Positions 24,203-32,665 of a stretch of DNA of 64,000 nucleotides are shown here, piece by piece. Within the stretch, counting starts at the first letter, position 1. Every line of letters starts with the position of its first letter. The notes under the pieces were generated by a model, which did no database searches, was not told the origin of the DNA, and saw nothing but the letters and a program-made list of their open reading frames with translations. This stretch comes from a virus (Duplodnaviria; Caudoviricetes), in IMG/VR virus record IMGVR_UViG_3300037067_021615, positions 1 through 64,000 of that record, one strand, 5' to 3'. The translations under genes were made by a program, and so were the position numbers.

Positions 24203-24661
24203 TTAAGAACCATAGCGTGAGAATGCCACATATATATTTCTATCTTGTGTGATATTTGATAATGTATAAACAGTTGTTGCAGATGGTGTTGATATCGTCA
24301 TTGAGGTTCCATTAATAGTATAAGCAGAAAGATAATAATTAACTTGTGGATATACAGAAAATGACAAATTCATTGCTTCAGCAACTGATACAGACCCCCC
24401 ACTTAAAGATGTAGTTCCACCAGTTGCGCCTTTGGTTGCTGAAACCACAAAATAAAATTCTGGAGTTGGGTCTGGGTCTATTCCAATATGCGCTTGTTCA
24501 TGAATCATTGCTTCTTCATGAGAATTCAAGTTAAGTTGAGATAAACTAGTTACTTCTGGGAGATTAATGGTATCATATGCTGCAAGCCATTTTTTGTAAG
24601 AGAATCCATTTATTTTAACATGAATCCATTTTCCTTTTGCTGATTTATTTTGTAGTTTCAT
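24203..24661 (-). CDS. putative virion protein with Ig-like C-terminal domain
   Basis: Thr/Ser-rich beta-strand C-terminus (YTLSNITQDRNIYVAF); late motif upstream. Confidence 0.55.
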   Translation of the reverse strand: MKLQNKSAKGKWIHVKINGFSYKKWLAAYDTINLPEVTSLSQLNLNSHEEAMIHEQAHIGIDPDPTPEFYFVVSATKGATGGTTSLSGGSVSVAEAMNLSFSVYPQVNYYLSAYTINGTSMTISTPSATTVYTLSNITQDRNIYVAFSRYGS

Positions 24662-25257: not shown

Positions 25258-25701
25258 TTAAGAAACTCCAGCTAATTTTTTCATCTTATCTTTATCTTCT
25301 TGATTATTCAGAAACTTGGCAATATCCGATAAACTATCAAAAACTTTTGCCCCATTTTTTTTAACTAATTCTTTAACTTGATTAAGTGATTTCATTTCCG
25401 ATTTGTCAAATTCTTTATTATCGTCTTTTTCAAGAACACAAAATATTGTTGTTTCTGGTCTTAAATTTGAATCTTGTACCACTTCGGCAATTGAATAAAC
25501 TCCTTTCATTAGGGGAGTTATTACATAAAGAACAAATTTGGCTGTTTTTCTTTGTTCTACTTCTTTTTTTTGAGCTTCTTCATTCCAATCTTTAACTACT
25601 GGATTAAAATATGGTACTTTGAGGTCTTTAATTAATCTTTCTCTCCACGTGGAATCATTACATGTACCACCTAAAAATATGTTTGGATTATCTTTTTTCA
25701 T
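25258..25701 (-). CDS. nucleoside 2-deoxyribosyltransferase-like (TIR/NDT fold) protein
   Basis: IFLGGT..STWR, YFNP...DW, YSIAE. Confidence 0.75.
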   Translation of the reverse strand: MKKDNPNIFLGGTCNDSTWRERLIKDLKVPYFNPVVKDWNEEAQKKEVEQRKTAKFVLYVITPLMKGVYSIAEVVQDSNLRPETTIFCVLEKDDNKEFDKSEMKSLNQVKELVKKNGAKVFDSLSDIAKFLNNQEDKDKMKKLAGVS

Positions 25702-25776
25702 AATTTTTATTTAAAAAATAGCAAAATGAATTTGAATTATAAATGCTTTTTTATTATATTTATAATAAAATATATT

Positions 25777-26322
25777 ATGAAAAAAATTATTGTGGTTTTA
25801 GGGCTACCTTGCTCAGGAAAAGATACTCATGCTAAATTATTAGCGAATAAGCTAAATTATAAATATTGTTCTTCAAATGATATTATTGCAGAAGAAATAA
25901 AAAATAAAACAAAAATTGGTTTGATTATGGAAAAATACTTAAATTCTAAAACATCAGCTCCAGATGAATATTTAATTATGCTAATAAAAGAAATAATTAT
26001 TAATCTTAAAGAAGATGGAATTATATTTAACAATTTTCCACAAACAGTTAATCAAGCAAAAGCATTAGACTCTTTTCTTTTTACAAAGAAAACAAATAGA
26101 CCTATTCCAATATTTTTAGAAGCAGATTTAGTTACTATATTAAACCGTGTCACTGAAAAATTAGAAAGTAAAGAAGTTGATTCTTTTAAAAACACTATGA
26201 ATTTTTATGAAAAAAAAACAAAACCTATAATCGATTATTACACAGCAATTATGTCAAAATTTGATACTTCTAAAGATAGTATAGATAAAATTAATGAAGA
26301 AATAATGCAAAAAATAAAATAA
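25777..26322 (+). CDS. adk: adenylate-kinase-like NMP kinase (divergent); start MKKIIVV
   Basis: GLPCSGKDT, PDE, FPQTVNQA. Confidence 0.75.
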   Translation: MKKIIVVLGLPCSGKDTHAKLLANKLNYKYCSSNDIIAEEIKNKTKIGLIMEKYLNSKTSAPDEYLIMLIKEIIINLKEDGIIFNNFPQTVNQAKALDSFLFTKKTNRPIPIFLEADLVTILNRVTEKLESKEVDSFKNTMNFYEKKTKPIIDYYTAIMSKFDTSKDSIDKINEEIMQKIK

Positions 26323-26328
26323 AATAAG

Positions 26329-26829
26329 ATGTTTATTAACTTAATTGTTGCAAATTCGCAAAATGGTGTAATTGGAAAAGATGGAAATATGCCATGGAAT
26401 ATTCCACAAGAATTGACAAGATTTCAACAACTAACAAATGGCTCTATTGTTATAATGGGAAGAAGAACATATGAATCAATTGGAAAACCTCTAAAAAATC
26501 GTTACAATTTTATTATATCGCAAAGTAATTTATGTATTAAAGGTATCTATCAATTTAGCAATATTGAAGATGCTCTTAAGTATGCGAAAGAAAAATTGCC
26601 TAATTATGCTATTTTTGTAATAGGGGGAGCAAGTATTTACAAACAGTTTTTAGAGCAAAATTTAATAGATAGAATATACCAAACTATCATAAAAAAAGAT
26701 ATAGAAGGGGATGCAGTCTTTTCTTTTAATAAAGAAAACTGGAACATCGTAGGAGATATTCCAGTTAAATTGTTAAGTTATAAAGAACTTATTGATTGTT
26801 CTTATATAACTTGGGAAAGAAAAAATTAA
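26329..26829 (+). CDS. folA: dihydrofolate reductase
   Basis: NGVIGKDGNMPW, IMGRRTYESIG.PL.NR, IGGA.IY, EGD. Confidence 0.95.
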   Translation: MFINLIVANSQNGVIGKDGNMPWNIPQELTRFQQLTNGSIVIMGRRTYESIGKPLKNRYNFIISQSNLCIKGIYQFSNIEDALKYAKEKLPNYAIFVIGGASIYKQFLEQNLIDRIYQTIIKKDIEGDAVFSFNKENWNIVGDIPVKLLSYKELIDCSYITWERKN

Positions 26830-27644
26830 ATAATATTATCAATTTTGCATATAGGTGGCATTTGCATTTTATGCTCATTTGCAAAATGTCTTGTTTTATA
26901 AATCAATAGAACCTCTTGCTCTCGTTGAGATAATGTGCTAAGGTCTTCTGGTGAGTAATCAAAGTGTCGTGGATTATTTTCGACATACTCCATCGCTTGC
27001 TCTAATTCGTCATAGGTGGCTTTTATCTGGTCCTCGTCTCCACGTCCGTCATCCCAAAGGCCATCCGTTGGTTTGGCTATAACAATTTCCTCTAAAACAC
27101 CCATGTATTTGCCCAATTTACGAACTTCACTTTTCATAAGGTCCCCTATTGGTGATATATCAACCTGAGAGTCCCCTCCCTTTGTACAAAAACCAATTCC
27201 AAAGTCTTCGACCTTGTTCCCAGTTCCAAGTACAAGACAATTCTTAATAGAAGCATAATAATATAATGCAACCATTCTTAATCTTGACCTAGTGTTTGCT
27301 TCTGCTAAGTTCTGTTTTTCTAAATTATCATGCTTTTCTACATCAAATAGAAAGCAATTAAATGTGTCTGTTAAATCGCAATTTATTGTTTCTACATTAG
27401 AAAAATTATCCATCAACCACTTGATGTGATTACTTGCTCTATTTACTTCATCCGATTTCTGACGAATCGGCATCTGAATTGTATATAATTTCAATCCAGT
27501 TTTTGCGGCCAGAGTGGAAACAACGGCTGAATCAACTCCTCCAGATATTCCTATAACAAATCCTTGCATTTTAATGTTTTCTGCATGTTTTTTTAGCCAA
27601 GCAACAATATGTGCTTCAACTTTTGAATAATCTAAATTTTTCAT
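26826..27644 (-). CDS. nadE: NH3-dependent NAD+ synthetase; start MKNLDYS
   Basis: GISGGVDSAVV, NTRSRLRM, GTGNKVE, TKGGD, KSEV, PTDGLW. Confidence 0.95.
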   Translation of the reverse strand: MKNLDYSKVEAHIVAWLKKHAENIKMQGFVIGISGGVDSAVVSTLAAKTGLKLYTIQMPIRQKSDEVNRASNHIKWLMDNFSNVETINCDLTDTFNCFLFDVEKHDNLEKQNLAEANTRSRLRMVALYYYASIKNCLVLGTGNKVEDFGIGFCTKGGDSQVDISPIGDLMKSEVRKLGKYMGVLEEIVIAKPTDGLWDDGRGDEDQIKATYDELEQAMEYVENNPRHFDYSPEDLSTLSQREQEVLLIYKTRHFANEHKMQMPPICKIDNII

Positions 27645-27648
27645 ATAA

Positions 27649-27996
27649 TTAGTTTTTATTTTTTGAAATGTTTTTACCATCAATTCTTCGCTGAATAACA
27701 AATTTTCGTTTACCTTGGCAAAATTTTGCCCATTGTTTTTCGCCTAGTCGCAATTTTAAGTCTTCGGGAGTTATAAATCCATGCCATCCAATAAAATTAT
27801 GTTTATTATATTCTTGTTCTCTGCCACTACTCCAAGTTATATATCCTAAATCTTTGAATTTATATTTTTCGTATTCAGATTTGGTTTCTTCTGAAACATC
27901 ATTTCGCATTGGCTTTACTTCAACAATTATTATTATGTTTTGTAAAGGTTTTTTGTTTCTCTCAACTCCTATATTTGCATAATATTTATTTTTCAT
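27649..27996 (-). CDS. hypothetical protein; start MKNKYYA
   Basis: ORF directly upstream of nadE. Confidence 0.6.
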   Translation of the reverse strand: MKNKYYANIGVERNKKPLQNIIIIVEVKPMRNDVSEETKSEYEKYKFKDLGYITWSSGREQEYNKHNFIGWHGFITPEDLKLRLGEKQWAKFCQGKRKFVIQRRIDGKNISKNKN

Positions 27997-28177
27997 ATTT
28001 TCCTCCCAATACAATTCTACTTTCATTTATATCAAGCTCATAATCAAAATATGTTTTTCCATGAAACATCAAGAATTCGCCACCATGTTTACTATTATTA
28101 TCCCATTTGGCTATTTCCCATTCATTTTTTATTGAATATCTTATTTTAACCCAATAATAACCATTTTCTCTAATCAT
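27986..28177 (-). CDS. small hypothetical protein
   Basis: First gene after class II promoter 28199-28226. Confidence 0.6.
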   Translation of the reverse strand: MIRENGYYWVKIRYSIKNEWEIAKWDNNSKHGGEFLMFHGKTYFDYELDINESRIVLGGKYEK

Positions 28178-28315
28178 AGGTTTATAAGTTTTTTATATTA
28201 TACGTCGTTTGTTTAAATTTGTTACAGAAAACCATATTCTATATGTTAAAACTATGATAATTAAAGTAATAAAATATGGGCTAAAGTACGATTATCTGCA
28301 ACCGTTATAAGCCAT

Positions 28316-28459
28316 TTACTTTCCAAATTGTTGCTTACCTTTATTTTTTTTATTTTTCTTCCACGATTTTAACATACCTTCTTCATGTTTCTTCATGTGT
28401 TCATTAAAAGTAAGCAACCCACGTTTTATTCTATTTTCTTCTTTCTTTTTCTTATTCAT
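28316..28459 (-). CDS. 47-aa Lys-rich protein (MNKKKKEENRIK...), not in ORF track
   Basis: Manual translation; bracketed by GTTATAAGCC / GGCTTATAAC. Confidence 0.5.
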   Translation of the reverse strand: MNKKKKEENRIKRGLLTFNEHMKKHEEGMLKSWKKNKKNKGKQQFGK

Positions 28460-28483
28460 ATTAGTATCATTTTAATTAAAAAC

Positions 28484-28540
28484 GGCTTATAACAAAGTGT
28501 AAAAAACATTAAAACATTTTTTTACATTCAACCGCTATAG
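28484..28540 (+). other. attC-like site (integron-cassette type)
   Basis: RYYYAAC-like TTATAAC, inner inverted repeat TGTAAAAAA/TTTTTTACA, degenerate core GCTATAG. Confidence 0.5.
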
Positions 28541-28597
28541 TCAATTAAATGAGTTCACAGTAGAATCCAGTCATTGTATCTAATAAGCCGATTGGGA

Positions 28598-29443
28598 TTA
28601 ATTCATTTGTTGATTTACAACAATTTCATCACTTGCCTCTTCACCCCAAGCTGTTACAATTAAATAATACTTTTTATTTTTAAAAATAACTGGCTTTAAT
28701 ACAATCGGGTCAGGTATTTCAATTTTTTGTATTTTGTTGTTTTTTACCTCCATACCTTCCATATTAAAGTCTTTTACTGGAGCGGCTATTTCTAATGGGC
28801 ATTTTAAACTAACTTCTCTACTGAACATGGAACCCATTAATCTGTGTTCATTAATAGTTTCGTGTTCTTCTTTCGTTATGTATATTCTACCCATAGAACG
28901 ACTCTTTCCTCCCATACCGAAACTTGAATAAAAAGTTTCAGTAAAATAACACTCATGTTTATCATGCACATTAAACTGTTCAATGTGCTTTAAGTTCTTA
29001 TCTGGTACGGTTCCTAAATACCTGCTTATTTCACCATAGACCAGTCCATATTTTTGGCAAATTTTATTTACTGAGTCTTCGGTAATAAATTTATAAGTAG
29101 GGTAAGTAATGTTAAAAAAGTTTATAGCCTCAATTAGCTCCTGTTTTTTTTCATTTTCTTTTTGAAGTTTATTAAGCCTTTCTATTTCAATTTCAGCTTC
29201 TTTAACTTCTTTTGTATTCGTAAACCCAAGTATTTTTAATCTTTTACACTTATCCAATAATGCTTATTTATCAGTATCTAAAGAATTAGACACTTTTGCA
29301 GTTGCAAAAAGTTTGTCAACCTCAGTAAAAAATGAATCGTGTATTTCTTCAATAATTTCTACTGTTGTTTTGCCTTTTAAATCTGCCTTTGATTCTGCAA
29401 AGGCCACTTCGTCTTTTGCAGTCTTTTTAAATAATTTAAACAT
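28598..29443 (-). pseudogene. hypothetical gene with one in-frame TAA at 29264-29266
   Basis: ATG at 29443 reads 59 codons to TAA, then continues in frame into track ORF 28598..29257. Confidence 0.7.
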
Positions 29444-29506
29444 AGTTTCTATTTTTAAGTTAATATTTAATAGGATATGTAAGTGTATATTTCGAGTTCA
29501 TTATGT

Positions 29507-29782
29507 TCAATTAAATTGTTGTTTTGAATTTTTGTAATCATTATATTCTTCAATATCAGAAATTTTCTCATTTTTCCAATAGCCACCGAAAATATAACTT
29601 TTGATACCGTCTCCAATTTCCCATGATTGAAGAATATATGTAGTTTCCAACCAACTCCACCATGTGGTTTGTGATGTATATTGGTATATTCTAAGTGGTA
29701 ACAAAGTAAACTTTTTAATTATTCTAAAATGTTCCCATTTTTGGAACTTGCCATCGTTTCCTTTATGTAATTTTTTTTTCAT
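29507..29782 (-). CDS. hypothetical protein downstream of the rRNA-mimic hairpin
   Basis: ORF track. Confidence 0.6.
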   Translation of the reverse strand: MKKKLHKGNDGKFQKWEHFRIIKKFTLLPLRIYQYTSQTTWWSWLETTYILQSWEIGDGIKSYIFGGYWKNEKISDIEEYNDYKNSKQQFN

Positions 29783-29797
29783 AATTCTTTTTTATTA

Positions 29798-29868
29798 AGA
29801 CATTGAGGCGAACTGTTGCGTACTCTTTAAATGAATGGCTGCTTCCAAACCTACATACCTCAATGTCT
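29798..29868 (-). ncRNA. structured RNA mimicking the 23S rRNA GTPase-associated centre (helices 43/44, uL11 site)
   Basis: AGACATTGAGG-TATGTAGGTTTGGAAGCAGCCATTCATTTAAAGAGTACGCAACAGTTCG-CCTCAATGTCT: perfect 11-bp stem closing a 49-nt segment matching recalled 23S positions about 1056-1103. Confidence 0.8.
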
Positions 29869-29939
29869 ATTCAATCAATATTTTACATTCCATTTAAGTT
29901 CGTATTCAATGGTTTATATTTACAACTGTTAGCAAGTAT

Positions 29940-30272
29940 TTAATTCATCTTGTGGCAAAGGTCTGAACTAACATATCTTTTTTGTTCTTCTATATCATCA
30001 GTAGACCATCCATTTGTTCCAATATGAGATACTGAAAAATTATAAGAACCGTTTATTGTTATACATTTCACCCATATTAAGTTGGTACATCTTGGGTGAT
30101 TATATTTTATCATCTCAATGTCTTGTAGTAAAATATCTCTACCCCAGCTCCTTTTTAGTATATGCTCAAGAACAAAATATTCACCATCAGTAGTTATACT
30201 AAGTTTTTCAACATACTTATCTAGTTGGTTTTGTTGTGCTTTATTTATTTGTGCATAGTGTACCATAATCAT
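29940..30272 (-). CDS. hypothetical protein
   Basis: ORF track. Confidence 0.6.
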   Translation of the reverse strand: MIMVHYAQINKAQQNQLDKYVEKLSITTDGEYFVLEHILKRSWGRDILLQDIEMIKYNHPRCTNLIWVKCITINGSYNFSVSHIGTNGWSTDDIEEQKRYVSSDLCHKMN

Positions 30273-30368
30273 CCTTACTAATTGGTAATTTTTCCAATCA
30301 CTCTTTTAAATGTTTAATTTTCATATTTATTAACATTTTGTCTTTATATAATATTAGAAATAGTTTTA

Positions 30369-30830
30369 TTACTTACCATACCACAAATAGGCTGGTTTAA
30401 ATGCTGCTATTGAATAATGGTCTATTGAATGGGCTGTTTCTTGGACATGCCCCCATTCATCAACATATAGTCTCCATCCAAGTTCATTATCTCCATCATG
30501 GTCAGAATCTGCATCCCAACCTCCACATTCTACGTTTTTTGCTTCTTCAGTGTCTAACCACCTCCAAAGAATATCAATCAATTCGTTATCATCTATTTCA
30601 GTCTGTTTTCCCATTCTATCTGTAAATGGGGTAGCTTTGTACCCATCTTTAATTAACCAAGTAAGAACTAATCCTTTTTCTTTAGAATAATACCATCCTG
30701 TAACTTTTTGGGTTTGACCATATTCATTTAATAAAAGCAATTTAACAGCTATGCTTAATTGCTCTTTTGTTTTCCCATTTACATTAAAAATTTTATTGTC
30801 CATATTTAAGCTTTTAATAATTGTTTTCAC
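30369..30830 (-). CDS. hypothetical protein (Trp/Asp-rich)
   Basis: ORF track; DHDGD, GWRLY, WYGK. Confidence 0.7.
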   Translation of the reverse strand: MKTIIKSLNMDNKIFNVNGKTKEQLSIAVKLLLLNEYGQTQKVTGWYYSKEKGLVLTWLIKDGYKATPFTDRMGKQTEIDDNELIDILWRWLDTEEAKNVECGGWDADSDHDGDNELGWRLYVDEWGHVQETAHSIDHYSIAAFKPAYLWYGK

Positions 30831-30837
30831 AATAAAT

Positions 30838-31461
30838 TTATTTATTTTTAATAGTCTTTCTACTTATTTTTCTATCAAACAATCCTCTATGATGTGCTTC
30901 ATAGGCCAAAAGTTTTGTTTTTGTATCTTCAAGAGTATCCATCATACTCCTAAATTGAAGATAATTAATTTCACAAATTTCAATATTTTCATATTCTTCT
31001 TTAACTCCACCTCCAGCACCATTTATTTTATCCTTGTTTGTGGCTACTGCTAAAAAATAATGAATTTTTTCAGTTGAATATCCTGGTGTTGGATAACAAC
31101 AATAACAATATTCAACGTTTTCTTCTTTAAGGTTATATCCCACTTCCTCAAGACATTCTCTAATAAATGTCTTTTTGGGGTCTTCTCCTTTTTTATCAAT
31201 TTTTCCAGCCACTGCTTCGTAAACAAAACCATTTCTTCCTTTAGTATGAGTTGGATATCTATATTGTTTAACTAATACAACAGATTCTGTATCTATATTA
31301 TAAATTAATCCAGCGACTGCATCATGACTCGATATCTTTTGCCGTTTATAAGTTGACACTTTACCGTTTTCATTTGTATCAATAATTACGGCCTCATCAA
31401 TTTTTAGATGCCCATCATACATTCTTTTTTCTTCTTTTATTTCAATTGTTCTTTTTGACAT
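30838..31461 (-). CDS. Nudix hydrolase (ADP-ribose pyrophosphatase, NudF/NudK-like); start MSKRTIE
   Basis: Nudix box AGKID..GED....IRECLEEVG, QYRYP, PGYSTE; starts 2 nt after the pncB stop. Confidence 0.88.
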   Translation of the reverse strand: MSKRTIEIKEEKRMYDGHLKIDEAVIIDTNENGKVSTYKRQKISSHDAVAGLIYNIDTESVVLVKQYRYPTHTKGRNGFVYEAVAGKIDKKGEDPKKTFIRECLEEVGYNLKEENVEYCYCCYPTPGYSTEKIHYFLAVATNKDKINGAGGGVKEEYENIEICEINYLQFRSMMDTLEDTKTKLLAYEAHHRGLFDRKISRKTIKNK

Positions 31462-31462
31462 A

Positions 31463-32665
31463 TTATAACAATTTTTTAAGTCTCTGTTCAGTTTGCCATT
31501 TAACAAATTTAATTGTTTCTTCATCTCCCACATGTTTAGTTGGTGAATCAGATAATTTAATAGCTGGCATACCATTTATTTCAAGTAATTTGATAACAAT
31601 ATTCATTGGTTTAACTCCATCAATATCACAGGTTAAATTAGTTCCAATTCCGTAACTTTTTCTTATTTCTTTTTTGCGATATTCTTGAAGTTTAATTACT
31701 ATTTCTGGATTTAATGCATCAGAATATACAATTGTTTTTGTTGTGGGGTCAATACCTAATTTTTTATAGTGGTCAATCATTTTATCTGTAAAAACGAATG
31801 GGTCTCCACTGTCATGCCTAACCCCTGTAAAAAGATTAGCATACATAGAATCAAAGTCTTGAAGAAATGCATCAGTAGTAAAAGTATCAGTTAATGCGAT
31901 TCCTAAATTTCCATTATACGTCTTTGTCCAAAAATCCATAGCAATTTTATTTGCATGGGCATATCCATACATCGCAGCTATTCCAGACACCCATTCATGT
32001 GCATATGTACCAATTACCTTAATTCCATTATACAATGCAAGTTCTACATTGCTTGACCCAATAAAGTTTGTATGCATCAAAGAATCGCACATTATATTGA
32101 CAACTTGTATATGAACATCTTTTGATTTTGCCCTACGTGTTCCAAAGTCAACCACCTGAGCATTGTTCATATAAAATAGATTGGATTTTAAACTTGTTTT
32201 TTTAAGAACATCTTTAATATTCAATTTTTCATCACCTTGTCCAGTCATTTTGTAATATAATTCGCAAATATCTGACATTAATGTTGTTTCCCAGAGAACT
32301 GTTCTGTACCAGTACCCAGTAATTTGCAAAGACAATTTTCCTTCATATTGAATTATTCCCACTTCACTGGGGTCATATCGGTATCCTTCAAGAAAATCAA
32401 AAAAAGCTGCAGGCAAATAAGGACAAGCTTTTAAAAACTCTTTTTTTCTTTGTGGAGACAATTGTTTGTTTCTATAATTGTCAACTATTTTTCTTAACTC
32501 AACTGCAAATCCATCTGGATAAGCAGTATTATTTCTATCAATAAATTCGTATTTTACTTTTGCTTCTGGGAAGTTCTTAATAATTGCCCACATCATAGAA
32601 AATTTATACAAATCAGCCCAAAGAATCGAATCTTTGTTAATAGGTTCTGAAGATTTAAGTGTCAT
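31463..32665 (-). CDS. pncB: nicotinate phosphoribosyltransferase
   Basis: DLYKFSM, DFGTRR, GTYAHEW, LTDTF, RHDSGDP, GIGTNLT, IKLSD. Confidence 0.95.
   Translation of the reverse strand: MTLKSSEPINKDSILWADLYKFSMMWAIIKNFPEAKVKYEFIDRNNTAYPDGFAVELRKIVDNYRNKQLSPQRKKEFLKACPYLPAAFFDFLEGYRYDPSEVGIIQYEGKLSLQITGYWYRTVLWETTLMSDICELYYKMTGQGDEKLNIKDVLKKTSLKSNLFYMNNAQVVDFGTRRAKSKDVHIQVVNIMCDSLMHTNFIGSSNVELALYNGIKVIGTYAHEWVSGIAAMYGYAHANKIAMDFWTKTYNGNLGIALTDTFTTDAFLQDFDSMYANLFTGVRHDSGDPFVFTDKMIDHYKKLGIDPTTKTIVYSDALNPEIVIKLQEYRKKEIRKSYGIGTNLTCDIDGVKPMNIVIKLLEINGMPAIKLSDSPTKHVGDEETIKFVKWQTEQRLKKLL

Follow-up and report, generated by a model that had tools for sequence, protein, structure and literature searches.

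A 71-nt copy of the 23S rRNA GTPase-associated center between protein genes of a large uncultured phage

The locus and its genes

A 71-nt RNA element was identified on the minus strand at 29868..29798 of the window, the whole 64,000-nt stretch of DNA analyzed here, where it occupies the intergenic space between two protein genes of a large uncultured phage. The element (29798..29868) is composed of an 11-bp closing helix and a 49-nt copy of 23S rRNA positions 1056–1103. The window comes from an IMG/VR record of 102,661 bp with an estimated completeness of 29%, indicating a fragment of a very large phage, and the few DNA matches of this record are to huge uncultured phages. No LSU rRNA or tRNA genes were found in the 102.6-kb record, and the element is its only site resembling 23S rRNA's GTPase-associated center (GAC). 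Genes for uL11 and RelA/SpoT were also not found in the record, which is about 29% of the genome. The locus was also recovered, with no difference in sequence or flanks, on contigs from four other samples, namely SRR8542065, SRR6484325, IMG 3300014205, and 3300035208, which excludes misassembly. The initial annotation had named linkage to phage flanks as a point on which its proposal could fail; the flanks are unchanged in all four. An rRNA gene, an assembly artefact, and a chance match can all be ruled out for the element.

The surrounding genes form a co-directional array in the order NAPRTase, Nudix, a 153-aa protein, a 110-aa protein, the element, a 91-aa protein, a 59-aa protein, a 219-aa protein and, further on, NAD synthase. 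The element is thus located within an NAD+-salvage cluster (NAPRTase, Nudix, and NAD synthase). An upstream spacer of 71 nt (29869..29939, minus strand) extends from the stop of the 110-aa gene to the element and contains one sigma-70-like match, TTGAAT-18-TAAAAT, that ends 11 nt before the helix. Promoter-like matches in this spacer are no commoner than in shuffled sequences. Two motifs recur upstream of genes elsewhere in the window and look like phage-specific promoters of two classes. Motif 1, TTTTTTCGTATAA, is found upstream of genes ending at 32665, 18428, 19068, 23455, and 14104, and motif 2, (A)TATTTATAAA, upstream of genes ending at 24661, 25219, 20788, 34018, and 36013. Neither is found in the 71-nt spacer.

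Between the element and the ATG of ORF 29782..29507 is an A-rich spacer, UAAUAAAAAAGAAUU (29783..29797, minus strand), with the 15-nt length first reported for it. This spacer may serve for ribosome loading, for cleavage by an RNase, or for both. A terminator scan found no intrinsic terminator at the element, and the stem is followed by UAAUAAAAAAG and not by a U-tract. The element would at least be transcribed within the polycistronic RNA. The downstream gene (29507..29782, minus strand) codes for a conserved phage protein of 91 aa and is not part of the RNA. Homologs in 21 clusters (53%–77% identity) show that the gene is real, and no Pfam or PHROG family was found for it or for the small ORFs of the array. 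Homologs in other phages are separated from their upstream gene by gaps of only 5–12 nt, and in one locus with a 240-nt gap before the homolog (L150) no GAC-like sequence was found. Homologs of the 91-aa gene without the element elsewhere indicate that the element is not a conserved leader of this gene. Nor does the locus have the features of a ribosomal-protein leader, since the 91-aa gene belongs to no ribosomal-protein family and its association with the element is not conserved in relatives.

Architecture and match to 23S rRNA

On the minus strand the element consists of AGACATTGAGG (29868–29858), the 49-nt core, and CCTCAATGTCT (29808–29798). The two flanking strands are fully paired, as expected from the perfect 11-bp stem that was initially described, and the core quoted with that stem is exact on this strand. 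In the 5' strand of the closing helix (AGACAUUGAGG, 29858..29868), the inner 5 nt correspond to rRNA positions 1051–1055, and their sequence, AGACA, is that of the helix 42 5' strand in both Bacteroidota and E. coli 23S rRNA. The 3' strand (CCUCAAUGUCU, 29798..29808) is a perfect complement of the 5' strand and departs from the 3' strand of rRNA helix 42; no U-tract comes after it. The initial view of a non-rRNA closing helix is therefore right for most of its sequence, which is new, and wrong for the inner 5 bp, which sit at rRNA pairs 1051–1055/1104–1108 and keep AGACA.

All parts of the GAC fold can be located within the core. The helix 43 equivalent (1057–1081; 29831..29856, minus strand), which has 26 nt in the Infernal alignment counting an extra U, contains a lower stem (AUG/CAU), A1061, an upper stem (GGU/GCC, with U1064.G1074), a 1065–1073 loop with G1067, and a 3' linker with the Bacteroidota-type extra U. 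The segment of the three-way junction, UUAAA (1082–1086; 29826..29830, minus strand), is the same as in rRNA and includes the U1082-A1086 pair and A1085. The helix 44 equivalent (1087–1102; 29810..29825, minus strand) contains G1087-C1102, A1088, a compensatory A1091-U1100 pair, and C1092-G1099, and its loop is GCAACA, in which C1094 is present and A1095 is kept.

Infernal aligned 29862..29804 to positions 1092–1149 of the Rfam LSU_rRNA_bacteria model, equivalent to E. coli 1051–1108. This local match scored 31.3 bits (E = 3.8e-8; 261 nt searched, E-value thresholds), with a posterior probability of 1.0 at all positions and no non-canonical pairs flagged. The covariance-model comparison with 23S rRNA proposed in the initial annotation thus yields a significant match, and the matched domain is helices 43/44 of 23S rRNA, the GAC. 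Rfam at gathering thresholds reported nothing in the window, as expected for a 58-nt piece, which cannot reach 50 bits. By the same measure the element is not a full-length LSU rRNA (RF02541), the 58-nt local match of 31.3 bits being below the 50-bit threshold.

The reference sequences quoted in the initial annotation proved to be accurate. The E. coli sequence recurs unchanged in L113, a viral contig with a genuine E. coli-like piece of 23S rRNA, and the Bacteroidota version is identical to 23S rRNA of Bacteroides finegoldii, Rufibacter tibetensis, and Chryseobacterium fluminis. The Bacteroidota references came from rRNA-bearing "plasmid" records, and the best matches to the element were all Bacteroidota. 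An earlier estimate of about 7 differences in 49 positions from the Bacteroidota core is exact, the differences being G1056U, U1061A, C1064U, G1091A, U1094C, C1100U, and A1103G. They preserve structure as had been claimed, with G1091-C1100 becoming A-U, C1064-G1074 becoming U.G, and G1056.A1103 becoming U.G. None of the seven substitutions breaks a pair, two double changes occur (1091/1100 and 1056/1103), and the U1060-A1088 and U1065-A1073 contacts are also intact. In a simulation of 200,000 trials, all 12 pairs survived seven random substitutions in 2.7%. This comparison shows that the core derives from the Bacteroidota type of the domain.

Some of the seven changes bear on tertiary structure. 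The change U1061A had been cited as fold-stabilizing, which is accurate with Mg2+ present and not in monovalent salt alone, where it destabilizes the GAC fold (PMC6239185). In rRNA, G1071 forms a base triple with G1091-C1100 (PMC2952862, PMC8614978), and the same position in the element reads G1071.(A1091-U1100). The A-U pair at 1091–1100 may weaken or alter this triple and the tertiary fold. Among 65 listed elements of the family described below, U1094C, U1056, and U1064 are each singletons, making the core in the window the most divergent of those listed.

Thermodynamic folding was uninformative. Nearest-neighbor folding did not predict the rRNA secondary structure for the element (MFE of −19.4 versus −12.7 kcal/mol; z = −1.9), and genuine rRNA fragments likewise fail to yield the native structure as MFE, so this counts as weak evidence. 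The native-structure energy of the core is −1.9 kcal/mol by the same nearest-neighbor rules, the B. finegoldii and E. coli values being −4.4 and −8.0, respectively. Core helices weaker than those of rRNA plausibly explain the long perfect clamp, an 11-bp helix that is stable on its own in folding.

The surface recognized by uL11 is nearly unchanged. Nucleotides contacted by the C-terminal domain of uL11 (L11) are 1058–1060, 1062–1065, 1075–1083, and 1088 (PMC1802607). Compared with Bacteroidota rRNA, only 1064 is altered in the element (C to U), and it is still paired with G1074. We lean toward retained binding of the uL11 C-terminal domain by the element, a view favored by these near-unchanged contacts.

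Closest relatives

Five elements form a sub-lineage with the derived pair A1091-U1100: the copy in the window and those at loci L141, L140, L001, and L133. All five have G1071 and share the Bacteroidota hallmarks G1067, a four-nucleotide linker, and C1097. For L001 and L140, the compensatory 1091–1100 pair is the sole difference from Bacteroidota 23S rRNA. Closing helices differ among the five, and only that of L141 (AUAGACAUUUAGG...) resembles the one in the window. The L140 copy has a separate intrinsic terminator downstream, the L001 copy has a terminator about 50 nt downstream, and the closing helix of the L141 copy doubles as an intrinsic terminator, with GGGGG and U7 at its end. In L133 the mimic is 72 nt before a tRNA-Thr gene. 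The terminators of three relatives and the tRNA gene that follows the fourth indicate that these relatives are discrete RNAs. No homologs of the proteins encoded in the window were found in the four loci, so the RNA module occurs in unrelated contexts. A long tandem array of TTCTTAG/TTTTTAG heptamers is located directly 3' of the mimic's terminator in L141 (L141:1260–1500).

We searched for the H44 sequence of this sub-lineage in one genome per species from 185,579 species. It was present in 13 contigs, of which 12 hold true rRNAs, all with A1071, and the 13th is L133. The combination of G1071 with A1091-U1100 is therefore a signature of the mimics and not of the sampled rRNA. Because L133 was binned with a Saccharibacteria metagenome-assembled genome (MAG; G001), it was considered as the rRNA of that genome; this was rejected, since the real 23S rRNA of the MAG has a different GAC. 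The two are found at L133:2551–2633, a Bacteroidota-type mimic on a 6.4-kb contig, and at L156:875–936, the real 23S rRNA. The L133 contig is probably mis-binned phage or mobile DNA.

A family of phage GAC mimics

The element had been presented as a one-off, and in this the initial annotation was mistaken: it is a minimal member of a large family. Scanning IMG/VR with the pattern GAAGCAGCCA-N(2–6)-TTTAAAGA gave at least 119 loci, and about two thirds of those listed are neither rRNA nor chance matches. At least 62 distinct (non-redundant) elements are present in IMG/VR. The family arrangement is a helix of 5–30 bp, GGAnGUnGGCUUAGAAGCAGCCAUCnUUUAAAGAGU (1055–1090), an insertion of 47–340 nt, GCGUAAYAGCACAC (1091–1104), and the complementary helix strand. 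The insertion sits between U1090 and G1091 in most listed members, A is usual at 1101, and the closing-helix sequences are unrelated in nearly every phage of the listed family. A tRNA gene is found within 300 nt of 36 of the 62 listed non-redundant elements, 18 of the 62 have no tRNA in the locus, and every tRNA at a listed family locus is co-oriented with the element. Earlier, narrower pattern scans had returned five chance coding matches (L002–L006) and one true relative, L001.

Among the 65 listed elements, the 1058–1080 pair takes all four Watson-Crick forms (U-A in 26, G-C in 25, A-U in 11, and C-G in 2), position 1067 is A in 53, G in 9, and C in 3, and A1095 is replaced by C or G in six. 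The loop also varies at 1096 (A/G) and 1097 (U/C/A). A1095 is invariant in rRNA and has no tertiary contact (PMC6239185). Since A1095 and 1067, which are contacts for factors and thiostrepton, vary in the listed family, the fold and the uL11 surface are favored as the selected feature over binding of EF-G or thiopeptides.

The element has the core of this family, with 23S positions 1055–1090 and 1091–1104, both helices, and an intact junction. Its phage-specific closing helix directly flanks 1055/1104 and does not have the rRNA H42 sequence, and it is located in a viral genome outside any rRNA operon with phage accessory genes as neighbors. It lacks the tRNA-array location that is typical, not universal, of the family, with zero tRNA genes in the 102.6-kb record. 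A covariance model (R1) was built from eight other non-rRNA copies with the window excluded. R1 scored the element at 65.7 bits (E = 1.8e-15) along the entire model and had no other match in 64 kb. The rRNA structure was also evaluated in an alignment of 11 minimal copies with 500 shuffles and slid controls. Paired cells amounted to 84% versus 72% in shuffles, and the covariation score was 0.346 versus 0.133 in shuffles (0 of 500 reached 0.346), with slid controls at or below 0.142. The search for homologs and covariation that had been suggested at the outset thus recovers a family with covarying stems.

Insertion-free members are the element in the window, L001, L140, L141, L133, L051, L092, L100, L135, L137, and L138. 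In L051, L092, and L100, which are prophage-like records, a small hydrophobic ORF that has a Shine-Dalgarno sequence follows the mimic after about 30 nt. L051/L100 have C at position 1095 and L092, otherwise identical, has A. In L137 the mimic is just 5' of a tRNA, and in L138 it precedes an ORF. Within the listed family, the copy in the window stands out as minimal, with the strongest clamp, the most divergent core, a position outside tRNA arrays, and an ORF directly downstream. In one other phage lineage (L029, L034, and L086), homologs of nadE, pncB, and a gene for a 147-aa protein occur within a few kb of a family member, and their counterparts in the window are at 25258–32665. This association of the GAC mimic with NAD+-salvage genes may not be fortuitous.

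The family is apparently undescribed as judged from Rfam 15 and searchable literature. Rfam 15 has no family at the mimic sites and identified only the dense surrounding tRNA arrays, and no description of a phage GAC mimic was found in the searchable literature. Identity with GOLLD or ROOL was considered and rejected, with Rfam on ten family loci returning only tRNAs and, elsewhere in the loci, one HEARO RNA and one group I intron. A copy of the sarcin-ricin loop in the insertions was likewise considered. L033 (IMGVR_UViG_3300007354_000004) is a 381-nt member whose 315-nt insertion holds a sarcin-ricin-loop-like GUACGGGAGGA. This motif is present in one of 66 listed elements (L033) and is irrelevant to the insertion-free element in the window. 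Among GenBank phages, a search with the element recovered only true 23S fragments, in Paenibacillus phage Pd_22F and two short Staphylococcus records. The stretch in Pd_22F (L139:2250–2560; MZ092003.1 around 83,900–84,100) is unannotated genuine 23S rRNA of the H41–H45 region and is either host DNA or assembly carry-over.

Comparison with known RNAs

The closest likeness is to the GAC of 23S rRNA itself (E. coli 1051–1108, the 58-nt fragment that binds uL11 and thiostrepton). The two share their secondary structure, the sequence of the junction, and the sizes of the loops, and the element has the Bacteroidota nucleotide at 42 of 49 core positions. It is also compatible with the contacts U1060-A1088, U1065-A1073, and U1082-A1086 and with the C1072.(C1092-G1099) triple. 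Unlike the rRNA domain, the element is outside an rRNA gene, is phage-encoded between protein genes, and has its helix extended to 11 perfect pairs; it also has C1094 and the combination of G1071 with A1091-U1100, the latter in no true rRNA scanned. With the phage family it shares the core and an idiosyncratic closing helix (R1, 65.7 bits), and it differs from most listed members in that it has no insertion, keeps U1101, is without a tRNA in the record, and is 15 nt before an ORF.

Ribosomal-protein leaders such as the L10 leader (RF00557) resemble the element as RNAs that imitate a ribosomal-protein site off the ribosome, upstream of a start codon. Such leaders precede the gene of their own protein and resemble the rRNA site in part, whereas the element is a near-exact whole domain before an unrelated phage gene, in an association that is not conserved. 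Phage tRNA arrays are also comparable, both being phage-encoded versions of host translation RNAs, and members of the listed family are co-located and co-oriented with tRNA genes. The difference is that tRNAs work in translation and a ribosome cannot incorporate a 58-nt rRNA domain, so the element must act by binding something.

Interpretation

The compensatory changes, the match to R1, the relatives, and the covarying stems strongly support the core claim of the initial annotation, a selected autonomous copy of the uL11-binding domain on its own helix. From sequence comparison, they argue for a genuine phage RNA module that is kept by selection and reproduces the autonomous uL11-binding domain (the top of H42, H43, and H44).

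Among the possible functions, we rank a trans-acting uL11-binding decoy first and give it a probability of about 0.5. The RNA would be transcribed on the sense strand with its neighbors, either within a pncB–Nudix polycistron or from a promoter that lies in the 71-nt spacer. With Mg2+/K+ it would fold into an rRNA-like tertiary structure in which the 11-bp clamp offsets the weaker U.G and A-U core pairs. Host uL11 would be bound off the ribosome through its C-terminal domain, and the RNA, as a sponge or decoy working in trans, would take up free uL11 during infection; cleavage in the A/U-rich spacer could release a stable RNA of roughly 75 nt. Candidate pay-offs are uL11-poor ribosomes that would be unable to activate RelA, or simple protection of the RNA. 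Several points count against this reading. Sequestration of free uL11 would leave uL11 on existing ribosomes, which puts a benefit within one infection cycle in doubt, and the element has the G1071.(A1091-U1100) combination, the most divergent core of those listed, no terminator, and no recognized phage promoter motif.

Other readings were weighed against the uL11-binding decoy. We consider it unlikely, though it ranks first among the rivals, that the RNA lures away, as a decoy, an enzyme or toxin directed at the host GAC, such as an abortive-infection or competitor effector, and so protects translation of phage mRNA. We know of no GAC-directed anti-phage effector. Most listed members are found in phage tRNA arrays, co-oriented (36 of 62 are no more than 300 nt from a tRNA), and such arrays are viewed as counteracting defenses directed at translation. 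NAD+-salvage genes surround the element in the window, with nadE and pncB near the L029, L034, and L086 members; the link to NAD genes may also merely reflect clustering of accessory genes. There is a precedent in the toxin Tre23, which targets exactly this domain and ADP-ribosylates H44 around 1095–1098 using NAD+ (PMC8661411). A decoy should keep its target, however, and the Tre23 target loop (1094–1098) is variable in the listed family, with C1094 in the window. Less likely again is a cis translational operator, in which free uL11 on the leader would block or tune ribosome loading on the 91-aa gene and couple phage gene expression to the state of host ribosome assembly. Leader mimicry of rRNA sites in mRNA is an established mechanism of ribosomal-protein autoregulation, the helix is on the sense strand 15 nt before an ATG, and copies in the unrelated minimal lineage of L051, L092, and L100 (about 30 nt before an ORF) and in L138 are similarly placed. 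The 91-aa gene is not a ribosomal or translation gene, though, and has homologs in other phages without the element; the closest listed relatives are stand-alone with terminators or precede a tRNA, and most of the listed family is in tRNA arrays.

The remaining alternatives are less probable still. The GAC domain is the factor-docking site on the ribosome, and the RNA, with or without uL11, might titrate translation GTPases (EF-G, EF-Tu, or RF3) or RelA; the sarcin-ricin-loop-like GUACGGGAGGA in the L033 insertion would be in keeping with this. We regard it as improbable. An isolated GAC domain binds factors only weakly without the rest of the 50S subunit; the copy in the window has neither an insertion nor the sarcin-ricin-loop-like motif, which occurs in one of 66 listed elements, and A1067 and A1095, which meet the factors, are not invariant in the listed family. 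A decoy for thiopeptides or translation factors is likewise disfavored, on balance, by G at 1067 in the window and the variation at A1067 and A1095. A mere structural stem-loop, at a 5' end or between cistrons, that stabilizes mRNA or marks a processing site without mimicry would account for an 11-bp helix that is stable by itself and is followed by an A/U-rich single strand. Such a hairpin would have no reason to retain the junction, both internal helices, and the rRNA nucleotide at 42 of 49 core positions, and the same core recurs with different stems in dozens of phages, so this reading is very improbable. The least credible is a neutral, functionless scrap of recently captured host 23S rDNA. 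Its core would be of the Bacteroidota rRNA type, as observed, and phage records can carry host rRNA (Paenibacillus phage Pd_22F). Against this, the boundaries are those of the domain that folds autonomously, the 3' strand has been changed so that it pairs perfectly, all seven substitutions keep pairing, four relatives share the derived A1091-U1100 in unrelated contexts, and G1071 with this H44 is found in no true rRNA (genomes of 185,579 species).

Beyond the uL11-binding decoy at this locus, we tentatively suggest that large phages deploy free GAC copies for anti-defense or host takeover, as a uL11 sponge disabling RelA-dependent stringent signaling or as an effector decoy. The effectors in this broader reading would belong to a still-unknown NAD+-dependent or nucleolytic class that inactivates ribosomes at H43/H44, and the copy in the window, a bare 58-nt domain in an NAD+-salvage cluster, would then be the minimal functional unit. 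Bacterial ribosomal-protein leaders are known examples of RNAs that imitate rRNA sites. What is new, relative to Rfam 15 and the searchable literature, is a virus that carries a whole functional rRNA domain as an autonomous and nearly exact copy. If the element binds uL11 or a GAC-directed effector, it would represent a new route by which phages manipulate host translation or the stringent response, or resist defenses aimed at translation. The insertion-free 71-nt copy with its strong clamp is the simplest construct for biochemical and structural work, and its unusual G1071.(A1091-U1100) triple offers a natural experiment in a tertiary RNA motif that has been well studied.

Bacterial chromosomes, or the edges of integrated elements, may carry GAC mimics as well. 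In L140 (L140:1842–1950; metagenome contig Ga0247841_10017584), a stand-alone mimic has a tsaD-like housekeeping gene on one side and, on the other, an island of higher G+C content with genes for an ABC/AbiEii-like ATPase, a replication protein, and a serine recombinase. Beside tsaD and an integrated element, this locus looks chromosomal.
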